Shown here piece by piece: positions 1 to 38,310 of a stretch of DNA of 38,310 nucleotides. Every line of letters begins with the position of its first letter. Positions within the stretch are counted from its first letter, which is position 1. The translations under genes were made by a program, and so were the position numbers. Source of the stretch: a phage. The DNA lies in sequence record PX946180.1; one strand, 5' to 3'. The notes below the pieces were generated by a model that had not been told where the DNA came from, searched no databases, and saw only the letters and a list, made by a program, of their open reading frames with translations.

Positions 1-857
1 GGGCATATTCGCAAGCAGGAGATTCCAGAGGTTCGACTCAAATCCTGATTAGTGATTGCCACACCGGCGATAACACTAAGATTGATATTTACGTGTACAA
101 CGAAATCGGAAGCCTGTCTGAGATACTGATATCCAACCCTATGGTGCGAAGAACCACGCAACCAGATGGTGCCGTAATAGCCCTTCAGGGGACTCGCGTA
201 AGCTGTAATGGTGGCAGCATTGTTAAGTCTGGCGACAGACTAACAGTACCGTGCTTCTCTCTGTTTAATACAGATAGTGCAGCTGTGCGTGGGGTTACAG
301 TTGGTAATGTGGGGCAATTCCTGAGTCAGTCAGGGGCTAACAACTCCCTTGTTGCTAACTGTACTGTGAACTGTAGCATTGTAGGAATAGGAGGGGAAGG
401 CACTACCTATGTAGGTAATAAATTCATTCATGGTGGTGCAGGCACAACAGATGTTGCAATTGATGCCTCGACATCTATTAACTATATTCTTTCCAATACC
501 TTCTCTGGTTTCTATCGTAATATATCTTGGAACTCACAAGCCATGAGTATTGTAGGTAATGTGAGTACAGGAACAACTGATGTATCATTGCGTATGTTTG
601 GGGATGGTATTCAGTTGCTAACCCATTCAGGTAATAAATGGGATGCGGCGAGTAACCCCGCCATCGTTGCTACAGTTAAACGTGAAGGATCCACTACCGC
701 TAAAGCTACCGCTTATGCTAGCGCAGCCCCTACTACCCTAACGTGGTCTATTGGTGACAGGGTAATCAATAATACCCCCGCTGTAGGTAGCCCGAAAGGT
801 TGGGTGTGCATCGCTTCCGGAACTCCTGGAACGTGGGTTAGCGAAGGTAATTTGTAA
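1..857 (+). CDS. tail fiber/tailspike, 3' part (continuation of the ORF starting at 36692 across the contig overlap); beta-helix depolymerase-like C-terminal region
   Basis: Same reading frame as 36692..38310 once the 127-bp terminal overlap is collapsed; Gly/Asn/Thr/Ser-rich repeats typical of right-handed beta-helix tailspikes; stop codon ends at 857. Confidence 0.85.
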   Translation, partial: AYSQAGDSRGSTQILISDCHTGDNTKIDIYVYNEIGSLSEILISNPMVRRTTQPDGAVIALQGTRVSCNGGSIVKSGDRLTVPCFSLFNTDSAAVRGVTVGNVGQFLSQSGANNSLVANCTVNCSIVGIGGEGTTYVGNKFIHGGAGTTDVAIDASTSINYILSNTFSGFYRNISWNSQAMSIVGNVSTGTTDVSLRMFGDGIQLLTHSGNKWDAASNPAIVATVKREGSTTAKATAYASAAPTTLTWSIGDRVINNTPAVGSPKGWVCIASGTPGTWVSEGNL

Positions 858-953
858 AATAAGGCTCCTTTGGAGGTAGAGGCTAACTACACGCTGACCA
901 ACGCATGGTAACAACTTTGGGTCACGGACGACCCGCTTTAAACTGGAGGTTTT

Positions 954-1148
954 ATGATTGAGTTAGACTTCAAGAATGAGGTCCTTAAAGCCTCTCCTAT
1001 CGTCGGGACCGCTGCGGCTGATGGTGCCAGTCGGTTCTTCTTCGGACTTACACTGAACGAATGGTTCTACGTTGCAGCTATCGCGTACACCGTTGTCCAG
1101 ATTGGTGTGTTAGTCTACAAAACGATTAAAGGAGGTGGTAAAACATGA
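954..1148 (+). CDS. class II holin (T7 gp17.5-like)
   Basis: 64 aa, one hydrophobic segment, recalled similarity to T7 gp17.5 (IVGT..FFGL.LNEWFYVAAIAYTVVQIG); lies between tail fiber and small terminase as in T7. Confidence 0.85.
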   Translation: MIELDFKNEVLKASPIVGTAAADGASRFFFGLTLNEWFYVAAIAYTVVQIGVLVYKTIKGGGKT

Positions 1149-1408
1149 CGCAGATGGACTTAGAGAAGTTCCTCTTAATGCTAGATACTGAACGTGCTCG
1201 ACTCATGCTGCAAGACCTGCGGGATGACTCTAAGCGTTCACCTCAGCTTTACAACGCCATTGAGAAGCTACTGGCTCGTCACAACTTCGTGCTAAGCAAG
1301 GTGTCTGTTGACGAGAAGACGCTAGCTGATATGGAGGCCCTGAACGCAGAGTACGATAAGGTGCTCTCCGCTACGGAAGATAATGACACTGGATATGGAG
1401 TGCAGTAA
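1145..1408 (+). CDS. terminase small subunit (T7 gp18-like)
   Basis: 87 aa; RSPQLYNAIEKLL motif matches recalled T7 gp18; ATG overlaps holin stop; AGGAGG RBS upstream. Confidence 0.85.
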   Translation: MTQMDLEKFLLMLDTERARLMLQDLRDDSKRSPQLYNAIEKLLARHNFVLSKVSVDEKTLADMEALNAEYDKVLSATEDNDTGYGVQ

Positions 1409-1422
1409 ATCTCTTAAGTGTT

Positions 1423-1460
1423 AGACTCAAGGTCATCGTCAGGTGGCCTTTATGATTAAC
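1423..1460 (+). promoter_or_regulatory. R1.1-like RNase III processing element (R18.5 position)
   Basis: Motif AGACTCAAGGTCAT..GTGGCCTTTATGATTA, one of four copies (also 6468, 9884, 17126); GTGGCCTTTATGATT core matches my recollection of the T7 R1.1 site. Confidence 0.5.
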
Positions 1461-1509
1461 ACTACGCGAGGTGCGATCTCGTGAAATCTGAGAAACAAGG
1501 AGGGCAACT

Positions 1510-1947
1510 ATGCTCAAACTTTTACGACAGGCCGTCCCTTGGCTGGTGGCAGGACTCCTGTTCTGCTCAGGTTACTGGGTGGCAGACAATAAGTGGGAGG
1601 CAAAGGTAAACGATGAATACATCACGAAACTTAAGGCACGAGAGAATCAACGGGCTGCTGTCCAAGGTGAAATCGACAAAGTGTCAGCAGAGTGGCAAGA
1701 CAAGATGTCCGCGCTGGAAGGCTCTACTGATAGGATTATTGCTGACCTTCAGTCTGACAATAAGCGGCTGCGCATCCGAGTCAACACCTCAGGTCTCACC
1801 GAGTCGGATATCAGTCGATGCTTCCCTAATGGTAGAGTCGAACTACACCCAGAAACTTCTAAAAGTCTTATCCGAATAACTCAGGAGGCAGACCTTAAGG
1901 AGAAGGCTCTTCAGGACACAATAAGGAGGCTTCAAGGTGTTAAGTGA
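1510..1947 (+). CDS. i-spanin Rz (T7 gp18.5-like)
   Basis: 145 aa; N-terminal TM segment followed by a charged coiled-coil region; position after small terminase. Confidence 0.8.
   Translation: MLKLLRQAVPWLVAGLLFCSGYWVADNKWEAKVNDEYITKLKARENQRAAVQGEIDKVSAEWQDKMSALEGSTDRIIADLQSDNKRLRIRVNTSGLTESDISRCFPNGRVELHPETSKSLIRITQEADLKEKALQDTIRRLQGVK
1613..1879 (+). CDS. o-spanin Rz1 embedded in the +1 frame of Rz (true start uncertain, probably internal)
   Basis: Embedded ORF with lipobox-like LTISGC followed by Pro/Ser-rich tail, typical of Rz1 lipoproteins; the first ~35 residues of the tracked ORF are probably not translated. Confidence 0.55.
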   Translation: MNTSRNLRHERINGLLSKVKSTKCQQSGKTRCPRWKALLIGLLLTFSLTISGCASESTPQVSPSRISVDASLMVESNYTQKLLKVLSE

Positions 1948-2374
1948 TTACTACAAAGTGGACCAGGCGAGTCCATCCGGTCTGGTCTCCGTTAGGACTG
2001 GAAAGCCTGTGGGGACGTTAAGTCGGATGGGATATTGGATAGTACAGACACGAAGTCTAGGCAGTAAGCGGGCACATCGCGTGATATGGGAACTAACCAA
2101 TGGTCCTATACCACATGGTATGCAAATAGACCACATCGACAGGAATCCCAGCAATAATACCTTAAGTAACTTACGGCTCGTTACTGCCGCTGAGAACACT
2201 TGGAATACTGGTAGCCATTATGACTCTAAGACAGGAGTGAAGTGCGTTACCCGTCACCAGAATGGTTATAGGATTCAGGTTAAACGCGGTAATGTCTATA
2301 TGCGAACAACACGTCCTACTTTAGAGGAGGCTATCTCTGTCCGGGACCTAATGCTGGAGGGACTCTATGTCTAA
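1937..2374 (+). CDS. HNH homing endonuclease (HNH_3 motif plus AP2-like DNA-binding region)
   Basis: 145 aa; motif [37 protein letters not shown]; overlaps Rz stop and large terminase start; T7 has no gene here. Confidence 0.85.
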
Positions 2375-4133
2375 GAAAACACCTGTTGAAAGACAGGCAG
2401 AAATGACCCAAAGGATGAGGGACGATTTCGTGTTCTTCATCTTCGTTCTCTGGAAAGCTCTTAGCCTTCCGGTTCCAACCCGCTGCCAGATAGATATGTG
2501 TAAGAAGCTGGCTGCTGGGGATAATCGCCGCTTCATCCTTCAGGCGTTCCGTGGTATTGGCAAGTCGTTTCTGACCTGTGGTTTCGTGGTCTGGAAACTA
2601 TGGAACAACCCAGACTTGAAGTTCATGATTGTGTCGGCCTCAAAGGAACGAGCCGATGCGAACTCCATCTTCATCAAGAGAATCATCGACCTCATGCCTC
2701 AGCTTCAGGAACTCAAACCTAAGCAGGGACAGCGAGATGCGGTTATCAGCTTCGACGTTGGGCCAGCCAAGCCAGACCACTCACCTTCTGTTAAGTCCGT
2801 TGGTATCACTGGTCAGTTGACTGGTAGTCGTGCTGACATACTGATTGCAGATGACGTGGAGGTTCCTAATAACTCTGCGACTCAGGCTGCACGAGACCGT
2901 CTGTCAGAGCTTGTGAAAGAGTTCGACGCTATCCTGAAGCCGGGAGGTACAATCATCTATCTGGGTACGCCTCAGAACGAGATGACCCTGTATCGTGAGC
3001 TGGAGGGTCGCGGCTATACGACGACTATCTGGCCTGCACGTTACCCTCGAGATAAGAAGGACTGGCAGTCTTACGGCGACCGTCTGGCTCCTATGCTTCA
3101 GGCAGAGCTGGAAGAGGACCCTGAATCCTTCTACTGGCGTCCGACCGATGAGGTACGATTCGATGATACGGACCTGAAGGAACGTGAGCTGTCCTATGGT
3201 AAGGCTGGCTTCGCGCTACAGTTCATGCTTAACCCGAACCTGAGTGATGCTGAGAAGTACCCTCTGAAGCTCCGTGACCTTATCGTAGCCGACTTGGACC
3301 CAGCGTCCAGCCCAATGGTCTACCAATGGTTGCCAAACCCTCAGAACAAGCGTGAGGACGTTCCTAACGTTGGACTCATGGGTGACTCATACCACACGTA
3401 TCAGACTGTAGGTTCTGCCTTCAGTTCGTACACCCAGAAGATTCTGGTCATTGACCCTAGTGGTCGTGGTAAGGATGAAACTGGTTATGCGGTACTGTAT
3501 CAGCTAAACGGCTACATCTTCGCTATGGAAGTTGGTGGTATGCGTGGTGGTTATGAAGACTCTACGCTGGAAGCCTTGGCTAAGATTGGTCGTAAGTGGA
3601 AGGTCAACGAATACGTCATTGAGGGTAACTTCGGTGATGGTATGTACCTTGAGCTATTCAAGCCTGTAGCGGCACGTATCCATCCTGCTGCTGTAACTGA
3701 AGTGAAGAGTAAGGGTCAGAAAGAACTCCGCATCTGTGACGTTCTGGAGCCTATCATGGGGTCTCACCGACTTATCGTTAACGCTTCTGCTATCGTCCAA
3801 GACTACCAGACAGCCTCTGATAAGGACGGCGTTCGTAACCCTATCTACTCTCTCTTCTACCAGATGACACGTATCTCTCGTGAACGTGGAGCCTTGGCAC
3901 ATGATGACCGACTTGATGCTCTGGCTATAGGTGTACAGTTCTTCGTTGAGTCTATGGCTAAGGATGCCAACAAAGGCGAACGTGAAGTCACTGAGGAGTG
4001 GCTGGAGGAACAGATGGAGAACCCACGGAAAGGCTTCGAGTCCATCCACACTGAGTTCTGGGACAATGGTGTCCGGGTAACTCACGATACGGGCGATGAG
4101 CTTGGGCTAGGGTCATACGTTACGTTCCACTAG
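2367..4133 (+). CDS. terminase large subunit (T7 gp19-like)
   Basis: 588 aa, collinear with recalled T7 gp19 (586 aa); Walker A-like GIGKS and nuclease region present. Confidence 0.95.
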
Positions 4134-4227: not shown

Positions 4228-4250
4228 ACTTAACTATCACTATAGGGAAG
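4228..4250 (+). promoter_or_regulatory. phage RNAP promoter (phiOR-like), +1 G at 4245
   Basis: TTAACTATCACTATAGGGAAG matches the window consensus; sits between terminase and the genome-end region as T7 phiOR does. Confidence 0.7.
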
Positions 4251-4865: not shown

Positions 4866-5090
4866 TCTCACAGTTCAAGAACCTCAAGTCTCCCCATAGG
4901 CCCTCTTTCAGTCCAGACCAAAGGCCCTACCCCTAGACCTTCGGTCTAAACTTCAGGTCATTGACTCAAGGTCTACCCTAAGTCATGACGATAGGTCAGG
5001 GCTATGGCTGGTGGTCAGGACGATAGGTAGGGACTATGGGTCTTCTTTGAGTCTCTATCTGTATCAGACCTTGAGTCACTACCTACAGTC
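4866..5090 (+). repeat. candidate terminal-repeat (DTR) region of the linear genome, collapsed to one copy in this assembly; right boundary approximate
   Basis: Starts with TCTCACAG as the T7 left end does, followed by T7-like elements CCCCATAGG, ACCTTCGGT, CCCTAAG and GTCTCTATCTGTATCAG; comparison is from memory of the T7 terminal repeat. Confidence 0.35.
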
Positions 5091-7164: not shown

Positions 7165-7187
7165 ACTTAACTATCACTATAGGACTC
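7165..7187 (+). promoter_or_regulatory. phage RNAP promoter directly upstream of the RNAP gene, +1 G at 7182
   Basis: TTAACTATCACTATAGGACTC; followed by GACTCAAGGTC motif. Confidence 0.65.
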
Positions 7188-7256
7188 AAGGTCTAAGACT
7201 CAAAGTGAAAGACCAAAGAGACTTTAAGTGAAAGACTAATAACAAGGACTTTAAGT

Positions 7257-9104
7257 ATGAGCGTCATCTCTATTGACAAACACGACTTCTCTGATGTGTC
7301 GAACGCCATTGAGCCGTTTAACCTGCTGGCTGACCACTACGGGCAAGACCTCGCAGTAAAGCAGCTTCAGCTTGAGCATGAGGCATACACTGAAGGCGAG
7401 CGACGTTTCATCAAGAACCTTGAGCGCCAGACTGAGCGCGGGGAACTGGCAGACAATCAGGTCGCCAAGCCTTTGATGCAGACTCTGGTCCCGACCATCG
7501 CTAAGGCTTTCCGTGAGTGGCATGAAGGCCCGGACGGTAAGTCCTCGACCTCTCGTCCAAGCGTAGCGTTCACCATGCTGAGCACTGACGAGAAGGCTGT
7601 CAAAGACCGCTCTCTGCTCATCTCTGCGGAGTCTGCTGCGGTCATCATACTGAAGGTCATTCTCAGCAAGCTGGTCAAGCCTGAAGGCATCCCGATAACT
7701 CCTATGGCGTCCGCGATAGGTCGAACACTGGAAGATGAAATCCGCTTTGGTCGCATCCGTGATCAGGAGAAGGAGCACTTCAAGAAGGCGATAGCTGAGA
7801 ACCTGAACAAGCGCGCAGGGGTATCCTACAAGAAAGCCTACATGCAAGCGGTTGAGACCTCCATGTTGGAGCAAGGCCAACTGGAAGATGCCTGGGGAAC
7901 TTGGAGTCCGACCGAGGCGGTCCATGTTGGCATCAAGATGCTTGAGATTGTCATCCAGTCTACTCAACTGGTAGAGCTTAAGCGTTATGGTGCTGGCAAT
8001 GCAGCGGCGGACGTTGAGATGGTCCACCTGTCAGACTTCTGGGTCAAGAAGATGGCTCAGCGTGGCTTCTCTCTTGCGGGAATCGCTCCAGTCTACCAGC
8101 CATGCGTAGTTCCGCCTAAGCCGTGGACCGGGGTGGTGGGTGGTGGGTACTGGGCTAAAGGCCGAAGACCACTACCACTGATTCGCTTAGGGTCTAAGTC
8201 TGCGGTGGCACGTTACGAAGATGTATACATGCCTGAAGTCTACGACGCTGTGAATATCATTCAGAATACACCTTGGAAAGTGAACAAGAAGGTTCTGAAC
8301 GTGGTGAACATGGTCGAGAAGCTGAACAACACGCCTATTGATGACATCCCTCAGATGGAACCGCTGAAGCCTGAGGACTATGCGGGTGAGACTGAAGAAG
8401 AACTTAAGGCATGGAAGAAAGCTGCTGCCGGTATCTATCGCCGCGAGAAGGCCCGACAGTCACGAAGATTGTCACTGAGCTTTATCGTTAACCAAGCGAA
8501 CAAGTTCTCTCAGTTCAAGGCTATCTGGTTCCCGTATAACATGGATTGGCGAGGTCGTGTCTACGCTGTCCCGATGTTCAACCCTCAGGGTAACGACATG
8601 CAAAAGGGACTCCTGACTCTGGCAGTCGGTAAGCCTATTGGTGCTGATGGTTTCAAATGGCTGAAGGTACGCAAGAAGGATACCACTCGTCTGAACCTGA
8701 TGTTCTTAGGGTCATTCAACCTTCAGCCTACAGTCAACAAAGGCGCGAAGAAAGAGCTTGACAAACACAAGCAGGAGTCAGGTATTAGCCCGAACTTCGT
8801 CCACTCACAAGATGGCAGTCACCTCCGCAAGACTGTAGTCCACACGCACCGCAAGTATGGCGTGATGTCGTTCGCAGTGATCCACGATAGCTTCGGGACC
8901 ATCCCGGCTGACGCTGAGTATCTGTTCCGTGGTGTCCGTGAGACGATGGTCGAGACCTACCGCGACAACGATGTGCTGCTTGACTTCTATGAGCAGTTTG
9001 AATACCAGCTTCATGAGAGCCAGCGCGACAAGCTGCCAGAGCTTCCGAAGAAAGGTGAACTGAATATCGAAGACATCCTGTCTTCAGACTTTGCATTCGC
9101 TTAA
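7257..9104 (+). CDS. T7-like single-subunit RNA polymerase with ~268-codon internal in-frame deletion (catalytic motifs A and B missing; probably non-functional)
   Basis: 615 aa versus 883 aa for T7 RNAP; N-terminal ~464 aa and C-terminal ~151 aa are collinear with T7 (promoter-binding domain, specificity loop, HKQESG..FVHSQDGSHLRK, IHDSFGT, terminal FAFA); junction GFKWLK/VRKKDTTRLNLMFLG at about 8664-8669; no DGSCSG or TLAYGS motif anywhere in the ORF. Confidence 0.85.
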   Translation: MSVISIDKHDFSDVSNAIEPFNLLADHYGQDLAVKQLQLEHEAYTEGERRFIKNLERQTERGELADNQVAKPLMQTLVPTIAKAFREWHEGPDGKSSTSRPSVAFTMLSTDEKAVKDRSLLISAESAAVIILKVILSKLVKPEGIPITPMASAIGRTLEDEIRFGRIRDQEKEHFKKAIAENLNKRAGVSYKKAYMQAVETSMLEQGQLEDAWGTWSPTEAVHVGIKMLEIVIQSTQLVELKRYGAGNAAADVEMVHLSDFWVKKMAQRGFSLAGIAPVYQPCVVPPKPWTGVVGGGYWAKGRRPLPLIRLGSKSAVARYEDVYMPEVYDAVNIIQNTPWKVNKKVLNVVNMVEKLNNTPIDDIPQMEPLKPEDYAGETEEELKAWKKAAAGIYRREKARQSRRLSLSFIVNQANKFSQFKAIWFPYNMDWRGRVYAVPMFNPQGNDMQKGLLTLAVGKPIGADGFKWLKVRKKDTTRLNLMFLGSFNLQPTVNKGAKKELDKHKQESGISPNFVHSQDGSHLRKTVVHTHRKYGVMSFAVIHDSFGTIPADAEYLFRGVRETMVETYRDNDVLLDFYEQFEYQLHESQRDKLPELPKKGELNIEDILSSDFAFA

Positions 9105-9395: not shown

Positions 9396-9866
9396 ATGTT
9401 CGGTAAGTCAAAACTTGAAGCACAAATCGTAGAGTTGAGCATGAAGGTGGCATACTTGGAGCGAGCCGTAAAGGTCCGGGATAAGGACAACGAGAGACTG
9501 AAGGCTAAACTTGCTGAATCAGAGCGTAAGCGCCTAACGCCACCAGCGGCTGTAACTGTCAAGCGTATGGTCGGCATCAAGTTCAAGGAACTGTTCGACG
9601 GTAAGTATCAGCCCACTGAGTTCAAGATAGGTCTTGGAAAGTGTGGAAAGGTGGTTCACTACTTCGAGGTGACTAAGCGTGACTACCTGACGATTACCAT
9701 CCACCAGTACCACACAGACGGGTCATCTAAGGACTTTGAGTATCGACTTAGCGACATCGACGGTCGTATACAGTACGACTACGAGCCGATGCAGGTCTAC
9801 GGTGAGGAGGCAGAGCAGGAACGTATAGTCCAAGCCTTCCGCAACAGACCACGATTCGTACCCTAA
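9396..9866 (+). CDS. hypothetical early protein (156 aa), N-terminal coiled-coil
   Basis: Tracker ORF; GAGG RBS; charged heptad-like N-terminus (KLEAQIVELSMKVAYLERAVKVRDKDNERLKAKLAESERK); no recognised homolog. Confidence 0.6.
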   Translation: MFGKSKLEAQIVELSMKVAYLERAVKVRDKDNERLKAKLAESERKRLTPPAAVTVKRMVGIKFKELFDGKYQPTEFKIGLGKCGKVVHYFEVTKRDYLTITIHQYHTDGSSKDFEYRLSDIDGRIQYDYEPMQVYGEEAEQERIVQAFRNRPRFVP

Positions 9867-25139: not shown

Positions 25140-25839
25140 ATGGCAAACGTTCCGGGTCAGAAAATTGGTACAGACCAAGGTAAAGGCAAATCCAGTTCCG
25201 ACGCTAATGGCTCTCCTGTGTAACCTCCCGGCTGCATCCAACGAGAACATTGCCGGTCTGGGCACTGCGTCAGTACTTGAAGTTGGTACTAAAGCCGACC
25301 TGAACACTCCGGCTAAGCTGGGTGAAGCAATCATCGGTCAACTGACCATTGCTCGTGCGAAGCTGACCTCCAACTACGTTCCTGCTGGCGACCGTTACTT
25401 CTACACCACGCCGGACAACTACTCTGCAATCCTCGCGGCTCTGATGCCGAACGCTGCCAACTATGCTGCGCTGATTGACCCAGAGACTGGTAACATCCGT
25501 AACGTGATGGGCTTCGTTGTTGTTGAAGTCCCGCATCTGGTGCAGGGTGGTGCTGGTGAGACCCGTGGTGACGATGGCATCACTATCGCTTCCGGCCAGA
25601 AACACGCATTCCCGGCGACTGCTGCTGACGATGTTAAAGTTGCTATGGACAACGTTGTGGGTCTGTTCTCTCACCGTTCTGCTGTGGGTACTGTGAAGCT
25701 GCGTGACTTGGCGCTGGAACGTGACCGTGACGTCGATGCTCAGGGCGACCTGATTGTTGGTAAGTACGCTATGGGTCACGGCGGCCTGCGTCCAGAAGCG
25801 GCAGGCGCACTGGTTTTCACAGCGGCGCTGGGGGGTTAA
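25140..25839 (+). pseudogene. major capsid protein gene (gene 10A), disrupted: first 16 codons and last ~205 codons present, ~120 central codons missing, junction out of frame
   Basis: ATG 25140 with RBS encodes MANVPGQKIGTDQGKG (matches the recalled T7 gp10 N-terminus) then stops at 25221-25223 after 27 codons; the +1 frame from about 25213 encodes LCNLPAASNENIAGLGTAS... to the stop at 25839, collinear with T7 gp10A residues ~145-345; only ~810 nt separate the phi10 start site from the capsid stop. Confidence 0.8.
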
Positions 25840-26102
25840 CGACCTTTAAGGCCCTCTCTACAGAGGGTCCTACCTTAGAGATGTACAGTTCTACGGTGGG
25901 GACCAGCCTGAAGGTTGACTTCCCTGAGCTTTCAGATGTGACCGATTGGTCGCTGCTTGAGGTGACTACGCCTGATGGTGTTAGCTACTCCCGTAGAACC
26001 AACAGTCTCTACTTCAAGGCCACCTCTGGCGTGGAAGGTCTAGTGATTGTTGAGTATGACGGTTCGCCTGTGCGTTCCTTCAACGTATCTTTCACAAACT
26101 AA
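25812..26102 (+). CDS. minor capsid 10B C-terminal extension reached by -1 programmed frameshift at GGTTTTC
   Basis: Slippery heptamer G GTT TTC at 25812-25818, five codons before the 10A stop, the same site as in T7; the -1 frame is open from there to the stop at 26102 (tracker ORF 25881..26102 is its 3' part); extension is rich in beta-strand-like residues. Confidence 0.65.
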   Translation, partial: GFHSGAGGLTTFKALSTEGPTLEMYSSTVGTSLKVDFPELSDVTDWSLLEVTTPDGVSYSRRTNSLYFKATSGVEGLVIVEYDGSPVRSFNVSFTN

Positions 26103-26105
26103 TTG

Positions 26106-26148
26106 AAACCCCTTGGGTGCCTTCGGGTGCTTGAGGGGTTTTTTTTGC
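26106..26148 (+). terminator. rho-independent terminator, T7 Tphi equivalent
   Basis: AACCCCTTGGGTGCCTTCGGGTGCTTGAGGGGTTTTTTTT: GC-rich hairpin followed by a run of eight T; directly after the capsid gene as T7 Tphi is. Confidence 0.85.
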
Positions 26149-26161
26149 TTAAGGAGGTCCT

Positions 26162-26728
26162 ATGGCTCAATACATTCCACTGAATGCTAACGATGACTTA
26201 GATGCCATCAACGATATGTTAGCTGCTATCGGTGAACCAGCAGTCCTGCAGCTTGACGAAGGTAACGCTGACGTCTCGAACGCACAACGTATCCTGCATC
26301 GTGTCAATCGTCAGGTCCAAGCTAAAGGCTGGAACTTTAACATCAACGAAGCTGCTGTACTGACACCTGATGTCCAAGACAATAGGATTCGATTCCTGCC
26401 GTCATACCTTCGTGTAATGACTGCCGGGGCCACCAGCTACTACAGCAACATGGGTGGATACCTGTACGACCTATCCACTCAGTCAACCACTTTCACCGAC
26501 CCTATAACGGTAGAGCTTGTTGAGATGAAACCGTTCTCTGAGATGCCTGTGGTATTCAGGGACTACATCGTTACCAAGGCCAGCCGTGAGTTCAACGCTA
26601 AGTTCTTCGGTAGCCCAGAGTCTGAACTGTACCTTCGTGAGCAGGAAGCAGAACTCTATCAGCAGGTCATGGAATACGAGATGGACACTGGTCGCTACAA
26701 CATGATGTCCGACATCGGGAGGGACTAA
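26162..26728 (+). CDS. tail tubular protein A (T7 gp11-like)
   Basis: 188 aa; IGEP, NA.RIL..NRQ.Q..GW.FNI.E, TKASR.FN..FFG.PE and EYEMD.G.YNM match recalled T7 gp11. Confidence 0.92.
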   Translation: MAQYIPLNANDDLDAINDMLAAIGEPAVLQLDEGNADVSNAQRILHRVNRQVQAKGWNFNINEAAVLTPDVQDNRIRFLPSYLRVMTAGATSYYSNMGGYLYDLSTQSTTFTDPITVELVEMKPFSEMPVVFRDYIVTKASREFNAKFFGSPESELYLREQEAELYQQVMEYEMDTGRYNMMSDIGRD

Positions 26729-36691: not shown

Positions 36692-38310
36692 ATGTCCACG
36701 ATTACACAATTCCCTTCAGGAAACACTCAGTACAGGATTGAGTTCGACTACCTAGCCAGAACGTTTATTGTTGTTACGCTGGTGAATAGCTCTAACCCTA
36801 CCCTGAACCGTGTACTGGAAGTTGGTCGAGATTACCGATTCCTTAATCCAACGATGCTTGAGATGTTGGTTGACCAATCAGGTTTCGACATCGTTCGTAT
36901 TCACCGTCAGACTGGAACTGACTTAGTGGTAGACTTCAGGAATGGCTCAGTGTTGACAGCTAGTGACCTGACCAATGCAGAGCTTCAGGCTATCCATATT
37001 GCAGAAGAAGGTCGAGACCAAACTGTTGACTTAGCGAAGGAATATGCCGATGCTGCTGGTAACTCTGCTGGCAACGCTAAGGACAGCGAGGACGAAGCAC
37101 GCCGAATCGCTGAGAGTATCAAGGCAGCTGGTCTAACTGGCTATATTACCCGTAGATCCTTCGAGAAAGGCTTCAACGTTACAACATGGAACGAGGTCCT
37201 GCTATGGGAGGATGATGGTGAATATTACCGCTGGGATGGTACGCTCCCAAAGAACGTTCCTGCTGGCTCAACTCCTGAATCATCTGGTGGAATTGGATTA
37301 GGAGCGTGGGTTAGTGTTGGTGATGCATCGCTGAGATCTCAGATAGCCTCCGTAACCGGATTTAATCTTGTAGGTCAGGTGCCAGATGTAACTACATTAC
37401 GCAATACAGAACCGACAACAGACAGCAAGAGAATCCTCCTTCGCGAATACACAGCAGGCACAGGATATGGTGGCGGTCAGTTACGAGCAATCCTTGACGG
37501 AAGCTCTTACGTTGACAACGGCGTTACTGTGTTTAAAACAACTGGTGGTGCTGCATGGGTCCGCGTTAACGCAGATATCATTACATCCTTCATGGCGGGT
37601 GCTGTGCCTGATGCAGGTACTACTGATAACACGGCTGCTATTAATCGCTTCCTCGCCGCAGGTAAGAAATTGGTTATGAGGGATGGTATCTTTGGTCATT
37701 CTGGTCAAATTTCTTTGCAAACAGGTATATCTCTTGATTTATCTGGAGCGACAATAAAACCATCATCGACTCTACTCACCGCTGCTTGGGTGGGGAGCAA
37801 CTTGTTTGATGTAAAAATAACCGGCGGCGTGTTTGAAGGAACTGGCTTGGACAATACAGCTGGCAACGGCCATCTTTTGCTGCTTTCTAATTGCCAAGGG
37901 TGCTACGTAGATGGCACTACATTTACGAAATCTCCGCAGGATGGATTGCGATTTGTATCTTGTACACGATGTATTGCGAGTAACGCTATTTCGTACAACA
38001 ACCTTTCTGTAGGTATTCAAGACCGCGATGGGGATTACAACACTATCATTGGGTGTAAATGTAACGGTAATGGTAATACAGGAACGGTTGCTGGAGTTGG
38101 TGGTCGAGGTATTCTCACATGGCGTAGCTTTGGCACAAAAGTTATCGCCTGTGACGCGTTCAATAACACAGAGTATGGCATTCGGGCATATTCGCAAGCA
38201 GGAGATTCCAGAGGTTCGACTCAAATCCTGATTAGTGATTGCCACACCGGCGATAACACTAAGATTGATATTTACGTGTACAACGAAATCGGAAGCCTGT
38301 CTGAGATACT
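36692..38310 (+). CDS. tail fiber/tailspike, 5' part (T7 gp17-like N-terminal adaptor plus start of beta-helix domain); continues at 1..857
   Basis: ATG 36692 with AAGGAGG RBS; N-terminal ~150 aa resemble the recalled T7 gp17 tail-attachment domain (FDYLAR.F.VVTL, DYRF, LV.DF..GS.L.A.DL, HIAEE.RD); frame stays open to the window end and continues at position 1; total about 782 aa. Confidence 0.9.
   Translation, partial: MSTITQFPSGNTQYRIEFDYLARTFIVVTLVNSSNPTLNRVLEVGRDYRFLNPTMLEMLVDQSGFDIVRIHRQTGTDLVVDFRNGSVLTASDLTNAELQAIHIAEEGRDQTVDLAKEYADAAGNSAGNAKDSEDEARRIAESIKAAGLTGYITRRSFEKGFNVTTWNEVLLWEDDGEYYRWDGTLPKNVPAGSTPESSGGIGLGAWVSVGDASLRSQIASVTGFNLVGQVPDVTTLRNTEPTTDSKRILLREYTAGTGYGGGQLRAILDGSSYVDNGVTVFKTTGGAAWVRVNADIITSFMAGAVPDAGTTDNTAAINRFLAAGKKLVMRDGIFGHSGQISLQTGISLDLSGATIKPSSTLLTAAWVGSNLFDVKITGGVFEGTGLDNTAGNGHLLLLSNCQGCYVDGTTFTKSPQDGLRFVSCTRCIASNAISYNNLSVGIQDRDGDYNTIIGCKCNGNGNTGTVAGVGGRGILTWRSFGTKVIACDAFNNTEYGIRAYSQAGDSRGSTQILISDCHTGDNTKIDIYVYNEIGSLSEI
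38184..38310 (+). repeat. assembly overlap: exact copy of positions 1-127 (circular contig artifact)
   Basis: Direct comparison: 38184-38310 is identical to 1-127 and lies inside the tail fiber coding sequence. Confidence 0.9.

Follow-up and report, generated by a model that had tools for sequence, protein, structure and literature searches.

The phage DNA of sequence record PX946180.1 (38,310 nucleotides; the window hereafter, meaning this whole stretch) carries a deletion allele of gene 1, which encodes the T7-type single-subunit RNA polymerase (RNAP). The open reading frame (ORF) at 7257-9104 on the plus strand encodes a 615-aa remnant of this enzyme, as identified by the ORF itself, HMMER and Pfam matches, codon alignment and homologue comparison. 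A single in-frame block that contains the catalytic motifs A and B is missing, and the product is predicted to be unable to polymerise RNA. A second deletion shifts the frame of the major capsid gene 10A. We tentatively favour an origin in real deletion-bearing molecules that depend on an intact sibling phage.

Gene 1 lacks the catalytic core of the RNA polymerase

Comparison of the 615-aa product with T7 RNAP (1aro, 1cez) by HMMER gave two blocks, in which query residues 1-473 correspond to T7 residues 1-464 and query residues 462-615 to T7 residues 729-883. A codon-level DNA alignment to three relatives with a 2682-nt gene places the discontinuity in a single gap of exactly 834 nt (278 codons) after position 8669, with flanks of 91-95% identity. 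The deletion junction is at 8669/8670 on the plus strand, with a microhomology of 1 nt (C), and reads ...GFKWLKV/RKKDTTRLNL... in the protein. Codons 472-749 of the 893-aa polymerase are excised. They correspond to T7 residues ~463-739, which we take from the T7 RNAP domain map to be the second half of the first palm segment and nearly all of the fingers. The initial annotation of this ORF had proposed an in-frame internal deletion, and both alignments confirm the gap. Its collinear T7 flanks are likewise found, with sizes of 471 and 144 aa rather than ~464 and ~151; its limits for the missing T7 residues (~467-734) have to be replaced by those given above, and the junction, assigned to the right locus at 8664-8669, is in fact one codon further to the right.

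The retained 5' segment (7257-8669, plus strand; aa 1-471, ~T7 1-462) covers the N-terminal domain, the thumb and the start of the palm with DWRGR (the T/DxxGR motif, aa 430), as placed by HMMER, codon alignment and motif scan, and is 96-98% identical in amino acids to the 893-aa homologues. Its match to the Pfam family RPOL_N (PF14700; E = 4.9e-16, aa 35-336) is almost complete, at profile positions 1-333 of 334. The retained 3' segment (8670-9104, plus strand; aa 472-615, ~T7 740-883), placed by the same means and by Pfam, holds the specificity loop, the equivalent of His784, motif C (HDSFG, aa 543) with the second catalytic aspartate (T7 D812), the C-terminal FAFA and the stop codon. The match to PF00940 (RNA_pol) is limited to profile positions 284-376 of 448.

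Motif A (DGSCSG), which carries the catalytic aspartate (T7 D537), was found in the ORF by neither an exact nor a relaxed pattern; in relatives it lies at aa 547, within the deleted block. Motif B, the O-helix (TLAYGS; T7 K631 and Y639), is at aa 646 in relatives and occurs neither in the ORF nor in any of the six frames of the window. The motif scan thus agrees with the initial annotation on what is missing and on the retention of motif C and the specificity loop. The 615-aa product lacks the contiguous palm-fingers-palm core of the ~800-960 aa enzymes. When the 834-bp block was searched against the whole window by blastn and tblastn, only chance matches were obtained, with no relocated copy and no split gene.

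T7-family RNAPs devoid of the motif A aspartate and the O-helix residues do not add nucleotides. As motifs A and B are lost here and not encoded elsewhere in the window, the product is predicted to be unable to polymerise RNA, as the initial annotation had judged very likely. Gene 1 of this phage is, as read from its motifs, a null allele of a well-known enzyme and not a new kind of polymerase. An antisense ORF of 258 aa overlaps gene 1 (7251-8027, minus strand); codon bias is its most probable cause, and it is unlikely to be a gene.

The deleted architecture is absent from the homologues compared

Close homologues were compared through the best 120 of 676 matches, all of which are exactly 893 aa long, and the deleted block is nearly invariant among homologues. 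We also scanned 1.84 billion cluster representatives (50% identity) with HMMER and inspected the best 150 of the 6052 matches, none of which shows the 615-aa architecture. The near-full-length representatives listed (~800-960 aa) align in two or three stretches, the N-terminal one stopping near query residue 472, and the few representatives that match in a single stretch are all fragments. A 200-nt probe spanning the junction is covered in one piece by none of 970 phage records. The exact 615-aa protein is absent from a collection of 15 billion proteins, and the gene 1 junction, in exact or degenerate form, is absent from the viral contigs, metagenome contigs, E. coli genomes and plasmids searched. 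A related polymerase of the same architecture, which would have spoken against a defect, was thus not encountered in the three sets inspected (120, 150 and 970).

A naturally short RNAP lineage is ruled out by the 893-aa homologues, the lack of a junction-spanning phage record and the split representative matches. The annotation of phage LM33_P1 (LT594300.1), in which the RNAP is given as two coding sequences of 656 and 229 aa (458-3139), is unrelated; it reflects a point frameshift or stop within a normal 2682-nt span.

These comparisons bear on whether the 615-aa protein could work as a compact or split RNA polymerase. The preserved frame and the retention of the N-terminal domain, the specificity loop and motif C would suit such a protein, but motif A with its catalytic aspartate and motif B are absent, the window provides no complementing fragment, the deleted block is nearly invariant in homologues, and the architecture is found in none of the 120 close matches and none of the 150 representatives. 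The capsid gene is broken as well. We therefore regard a functional minimal polymerase as effectively excluded.

Promoters served by the missing polymerase

The phage-type promoter pattern AACTATCACTATAGGRA has 11 plus-strand matches in the window against 0.15 expected, in line with the eleven promoters counted by the initial annotation. They are of the form AACTATCACTATAGG, and one of them, AACTATCACTATAGGAC at 7169-7185 on the plus strand, lies directly upstream of gene 1, where a promoter is also annotated in CR44b. The loss of the palm and fingers block supports the earlier view that the genome is unable to run its own phage promoters. The early genes and the gene 1 remnant could still be expressed by host RNA polymerase, with the 11 phage-promoter units remaining silent. 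The suggestion of the initial annotation that the remnant might bind promoters is speculative.

A second deletion disrupts the major capsid gene

We compared every protein of phage CHX131 with the window and then aligned the DNA to five relatives, and this revealed an interruption of the major capsid gene 10A. At 25205/25206 on the plus strand, 350 bp of the relatives are missing (codons 23-139 plus 2 nt), with zero microhomology at the junction. In the DNA alignment, the truncated start of the gene (25140-25223, plus strand) retains 22 native codons, after which the frame shifts and a stop follows after 27 aa. The 3' part persists as an out-of-frame remnant of 210 aa (25207-25839, plus strand) that matches the Pfam Gp10A-like profile at positions 81-279 of 279. 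All relatives examined have an intact gene 10A of ~349 aa. The deletion is shared by none of the phage records searched, and its junction is absent from the public collections searched.

This lesion is additional to the single-gene finding of the initial annotation, and a second, frameshifting deletion in 10A reinforces the reading of the genome as defective. Even with polymerase supplied in trans, capsid formation would be impossible with gene 10A broken. Judged from its sequence, the genome is doubly defective: its phage-promoter units would not be transcribed and its heads would not be built.

The spacer between genes 10A and 11 (25839-26162), which takes in the area of the 10B extension and terminator, is ~130 bp longer than in CR44b, SP7 and ASO2B; this length is common to CHX131.

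The rest of the genome is complete

In circularly permuted form, the window contains the whole genome of a T7-like phage that belongs to the genus Kayfunavirus (K1F-like, Studiervirinae). Its sequence is collinear with those of Monomax, CHX131, ST31, CR44b, TH16, SP7 and ASO2B at a nucleotide identity of ~92-95%, and its T7-like gene order, K1F-type promoters and >90% nucleotide identity to members all place it within the genus. A search for a closer parent returned none, the nearest Logan and ENA genomes being at ~92% nucleotide identity, and nine of ten large window proteins have no exact match in the 15-billion-protein collection. By these sequence comparisons the phage is undescribed in the resources searched.

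The two ends of the window overlap by exact identity over 127 bp (1-127 = 38184-38310; strand not applicable), which is the signature of a circularised de Bruijn contig built at k=127. Removal of the overlap gives a circle of 38,183 bp and restores the tailspike gene across the join, the contig break being inside that gene. The genome is therefore 38.2 kb in size, or 39.4 kb with both deletions put back, compared with ~39-40 kb for the genus, and 1184 bp (~3%) are lost in total.

All core genes other than 1 and 10A are full length by comparison of every CHX131 protein with the window. The intact genes include those for the primase-helicase, DNA polymerase, exonuclease, portal, scaffold, tail tube, internal virion proteins, tailspike, holin, spanins and terminase. 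In whole-genome DNA alignments to five relatives (CHX131, CR44b, TH16, SP7 and ASO2B), the deletions specific to the window number exactly two, 834 bp in gene 1 and 350 bp in gene 10A, at a distance of 16.5 kb from each other. The remaining length differences are HNH homing-endonuclease genes or small variable ORFs that are present or absent. Window stretches of at least 40 bp without a match in the five relatives are confined to the receptor-binding part of the tailspike and five short segments located among variable small genes.

A single collapsed copy of the terminal repeat (~190 bp; 4866-5057, plus strand) matches both ends of CR44b, as annotated there, and marks the physical genome ends. 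A phage promoter at 4232-4248 lies close to the right physical end.

Breakpoints and age of the deletions

Homology at the breakpoints is 1 nt in gene 1 and 0 nt in gene 10A. An 11-nt direct repeat, CTGATGGTTTC, lies near both gene 1 breakpoints; its left copy is retained at 8644-8654 on the plus strand, and the second copy is present in relatives near the right breakpoint, within the deleted block. In relatives, the distance from the start of each copy to the breakpoint downstream of it is 26 nt on the left and 29 nt on the right. A repeat of this length near both breakpoints has a chance probability of P ~0.013, and its register is shifted by 3 nt relative to the junction. At the capsid breakpoints the longest shared string is 8 nt, again not in register. 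Both deletions begin at a codon boundary (phase 0), and the capsid deletion is exactly 350 bp long.

Spontaneous deletions of T7 are classically described between short direct repeats (Studier 1979; Kong & Masker 1994, both as cited in PMC5630979), so the junctions in genes 1 and 10A are atypical. Repeat-mediated deletion was rejected on the sequence of the gene 1 junction, which differs both from the one predicted by the 11-nt repeat and from the one predicted by GTAC. Restriction-site scars were sought by eye at GGTACG and GCTAAT, and none was convincing. A role of homing endonucleases was also rejected, the HNH genes of relatives adjoining genes 5, 8, 16 and 19 and not genes 1 or 10.

The retained coding sequence of gene 1 is well preserved. 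The alignment of the remnant is 97-98% identical throughout, and its 615 residues contain one private substitution, with none at invariant sites, compared with an average of 0.88 private substitutions in functional homologues. This rules out an old pseudogene. With no drift in the retained residues, the event is either very recent or not biological, and the gene 1 deletion indeed looks recent on this substitution count.

Origin of the deletions

Our favoured reading, which we hold with some reserve, is that real molecules carrying the deletions were present and depended on an intact sibling phage. Under this model, a very recent and nearly homology-free deletion of 834 bp would have removed codons 472-749 from an ordinary 893-aa Kayfunavirus RNA polymerase, and the window would represent real deletion-bearing DNA in the sequenced stock or sample. 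Replication, transcription and packaging of such DNA would require co-infection of the cell by intact siblings, which would provide RNA polymerase and capsid protein in trans. The de Bruijn assembler would then have followed the deletion junctions, and the two deletions may have been carried by different molecules or sub-populations.

Several lines of evidence point to this origin. The gene 1 deletion is exact and unique among the sequences searched, a second such lesion affects gene 10A, the other core genes are full length, and the retained residues of gene 1 show no decay. A graph contig at k=127 needs reads that span the junctions, and no repeat approaches that length, which supports real molecules. 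Both lost functions are those of diffusible proteins, and the cis elements checked (promoters and terminal repeat) are all kept; loss of essential trans-acting functions with retention of cis-acting elements is as expected for a helper-dependent genome. The 11-nt repeat near both gene 1 breakpoints also hints at a natural misalignment event.

The same graph structure bears on an assembly collapse, raised earlier as a read-collapse artifact, in which 834 bp and 350 bp carried by every molecule would have been left out when the assembler jumped across a repeat. The contig is of the short-read graph type and the 11-nt repeat lies near the gene 1 breakpoints, as such a jump might require. However, a jump needs a shared k-mer, and the longest shared strings, 11 nt in gene 1 and 8 nt in the capsid gene, are far below any usual k or 127; the observed junctions are also unlike the recombination product of those repeats. 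Given the 127-bp overlap contig and a breakpoint homology of 0-1 nt, we consider a collapse highly improbable.

Several observations weigh against helper-dependent molecules. With a genome only ~3% shorter there is no obvious replication advantage, so a doubly defective assembled path is unexpected. The junction homologies of 1 nt and 0 nt are unlike those of direct-repeat deletions in T7, and the codon-boundary starts and the round 350 bp are explained no less well by a designed or in-silico edit. Neither junction was present in any public assembly searched, and no natural defective-interfering genomes of T7-like phages were found in the literature searched. A search of that literature for defective-interfering or cheater genomes in the Autographiviridae was likewise negative. 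The stronger version of the model, namely a helper-dependent genome that arose naturally and reached an abundance in a stock or environmental sample sufficient for assembly as a closed genome, is in our estimation rather improbable.

The breakpoint features would also fit a non-biological origin. The contig may, for example, have been edited by hand or by script or perturbed on purpose as a test sequence, or the consensus may derive from chimeric or low-quality data; the real phage would then have an 893-aa RNAP and a ~349-aa capsid protein. Junction homologies of 0-1 nt are those of random cuts, both deletions start at codon phase 0, one of them is exactly 350 bp, the retained coding sequence has not decayed, and two lethal lesions stand in an otherwise pristine genome. 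With nine of ten large proteins lacking an exact public match, no cross-check is possible. On the other hand, the contig otherwise looks like raw assembler output that still carries its 127-bp overlap, an 11-nt repeat beside both gene 1 breakpoints is unlikely for a random cut (at the probability given above), and no other sign of manipulation was seen, the stretches unmatched in the five relatives being only the tailspike part and the five short segments among variable small genes. We rank a non-biological origin second and regard it as somewhat unlikely.

Deliberate engineering would account for some of the same features. In this case the phage would be a knock-out without RNAP activity and capsid protein grown on a complementing host, for example a non-replicating or biocontained derivative. 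The gene 1 deletion is codon-precise and in frame, so that polar effects are avoided, the capsid deletion starts at a codon boundary, the junctions are seamless and without microhomology, and both targets are classic trans-complementable genes of T7. Gene 1 deletion phages on RNAP-expressing hosts are standard tools. However, neither junction carries a scar, marker, reporter or heterologous DNA, and a frameshift of 350 bp is an odd choice compared with clean gene removal. The chassis would be an otherwise undescribed wild Kayfunavirus, ~92-93% identical to public records, and no paper on such a double knock-out was found in the literature searched. We consider engineering improbable, and return to helper-dependent molecules as the favoured origin.

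Other features of the genome

The tailspike gene 17 (782 aa; 36692-38310 joined to 128-857) is intact. For its receptor-binding part (~560 aa), which has distant phage homologues, identity to entries of the phage collection does not exceed ~51%; the best match is in Escherichia phage KKP 3715, an unrelated phage of 71 kb. This suggests that a little-described domain, putatively of the depolymerase type, was gained by horizontal transfer.

An HNH_3 homing-endonuclease ORF of 145 aa (1937-2374) lies between the Rz-like gene 18.5 and the terminase gene 19. HNH genes of relatives are located elsewhere, ahead of genes 5, 8 and 16 or behind gene 19, and none of those is present in the window. The DNA polymerase gene of CHX131 (PV611674.1) is split relative to the window by ~600 bp with an HNH (gp5.3-like) ORF, on the reverse complement at ~36745-37345; this insert could be of the homing-endonuclease or intron type. 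Gene 5 of the window is uninterrupted. A 156-aa ORF at 9396-9866 carries a T3 gene-1.05 domain (PF25755); it is present in SP7 and missing from four of the five compared relatives.

Implications

It would be wrong to annotate the record as a complete and viable phage, or to use it as one in therapy, taxonomy or enzyme mining, and genes 1 and 10A should be flagged as disrupted. Its main value at present is as an annotation and quality flag, and further interest hinges on reads showing that the deleted molecules are real and abundant. If they are real and frequent, the sample would be a tractable system in which to study cheating and complementation for a T7-like phage, and it would follow that defective variants can emerge from graph assemblers as 'complete' circular genomes. 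Should the junctions lack read support, the finding would be a useful quality-control catch only.

Comparison with known systems

Defective interfering or 'cheater' viral genomes have been described, for example the cheaters of MS2 (PMC7442481), and have been reviewed (PMC7232179). The present genome resembles them in that essential trans functions are lost and cis elements are kept, with propagation expected only in co-infection. It differs in that just ~3% of the genome is removed, no replication advantage is apparent from the sequence, and no counterpart among T7-like phages was found in the literature searched.

The deletions also resemble the spontaneous ones of T7 in being internal losses of a few hundred bp, with the 11-nt repeat near both gene 1 breakpoints. 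In contrast to those, the junctions share only 1 and 0 nt, with the repeat offset from the gene 1 junction, and the classical deletions remove non-essential early DNA and not genes 1 and 10.

Laboratory T7 strains of the Studier Δ1 type carry gene 1 deletions and are propagated with T7 RNAP provided by the host. The likeness lies in the dependence of class II and III expression on polymerase in trans. The present case differs in combining an internal in-frame excision with a capsid frameshift, in a wild Kayfunavirus with no known complementing host.

The closest counterparts are the gene 1 RNAPs of other Kayfunavirus members (CR44b gp1, ST31, CHX131 and Monomax), with which the window gene shares collinear flanks of 96-98% amino-acid identity, the same gene position and the upstream promoter; DWRGR, the specificity loop and motif C are shared with these and with the distant T7 RNAP (1CEZ, 1ARO). 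The difference is the loss of residues 472-749, motifs A and B included. Thus, both the enzyme and the phage type are known, and what is new is a loss-of-function allele in a new member of a well-known genus.

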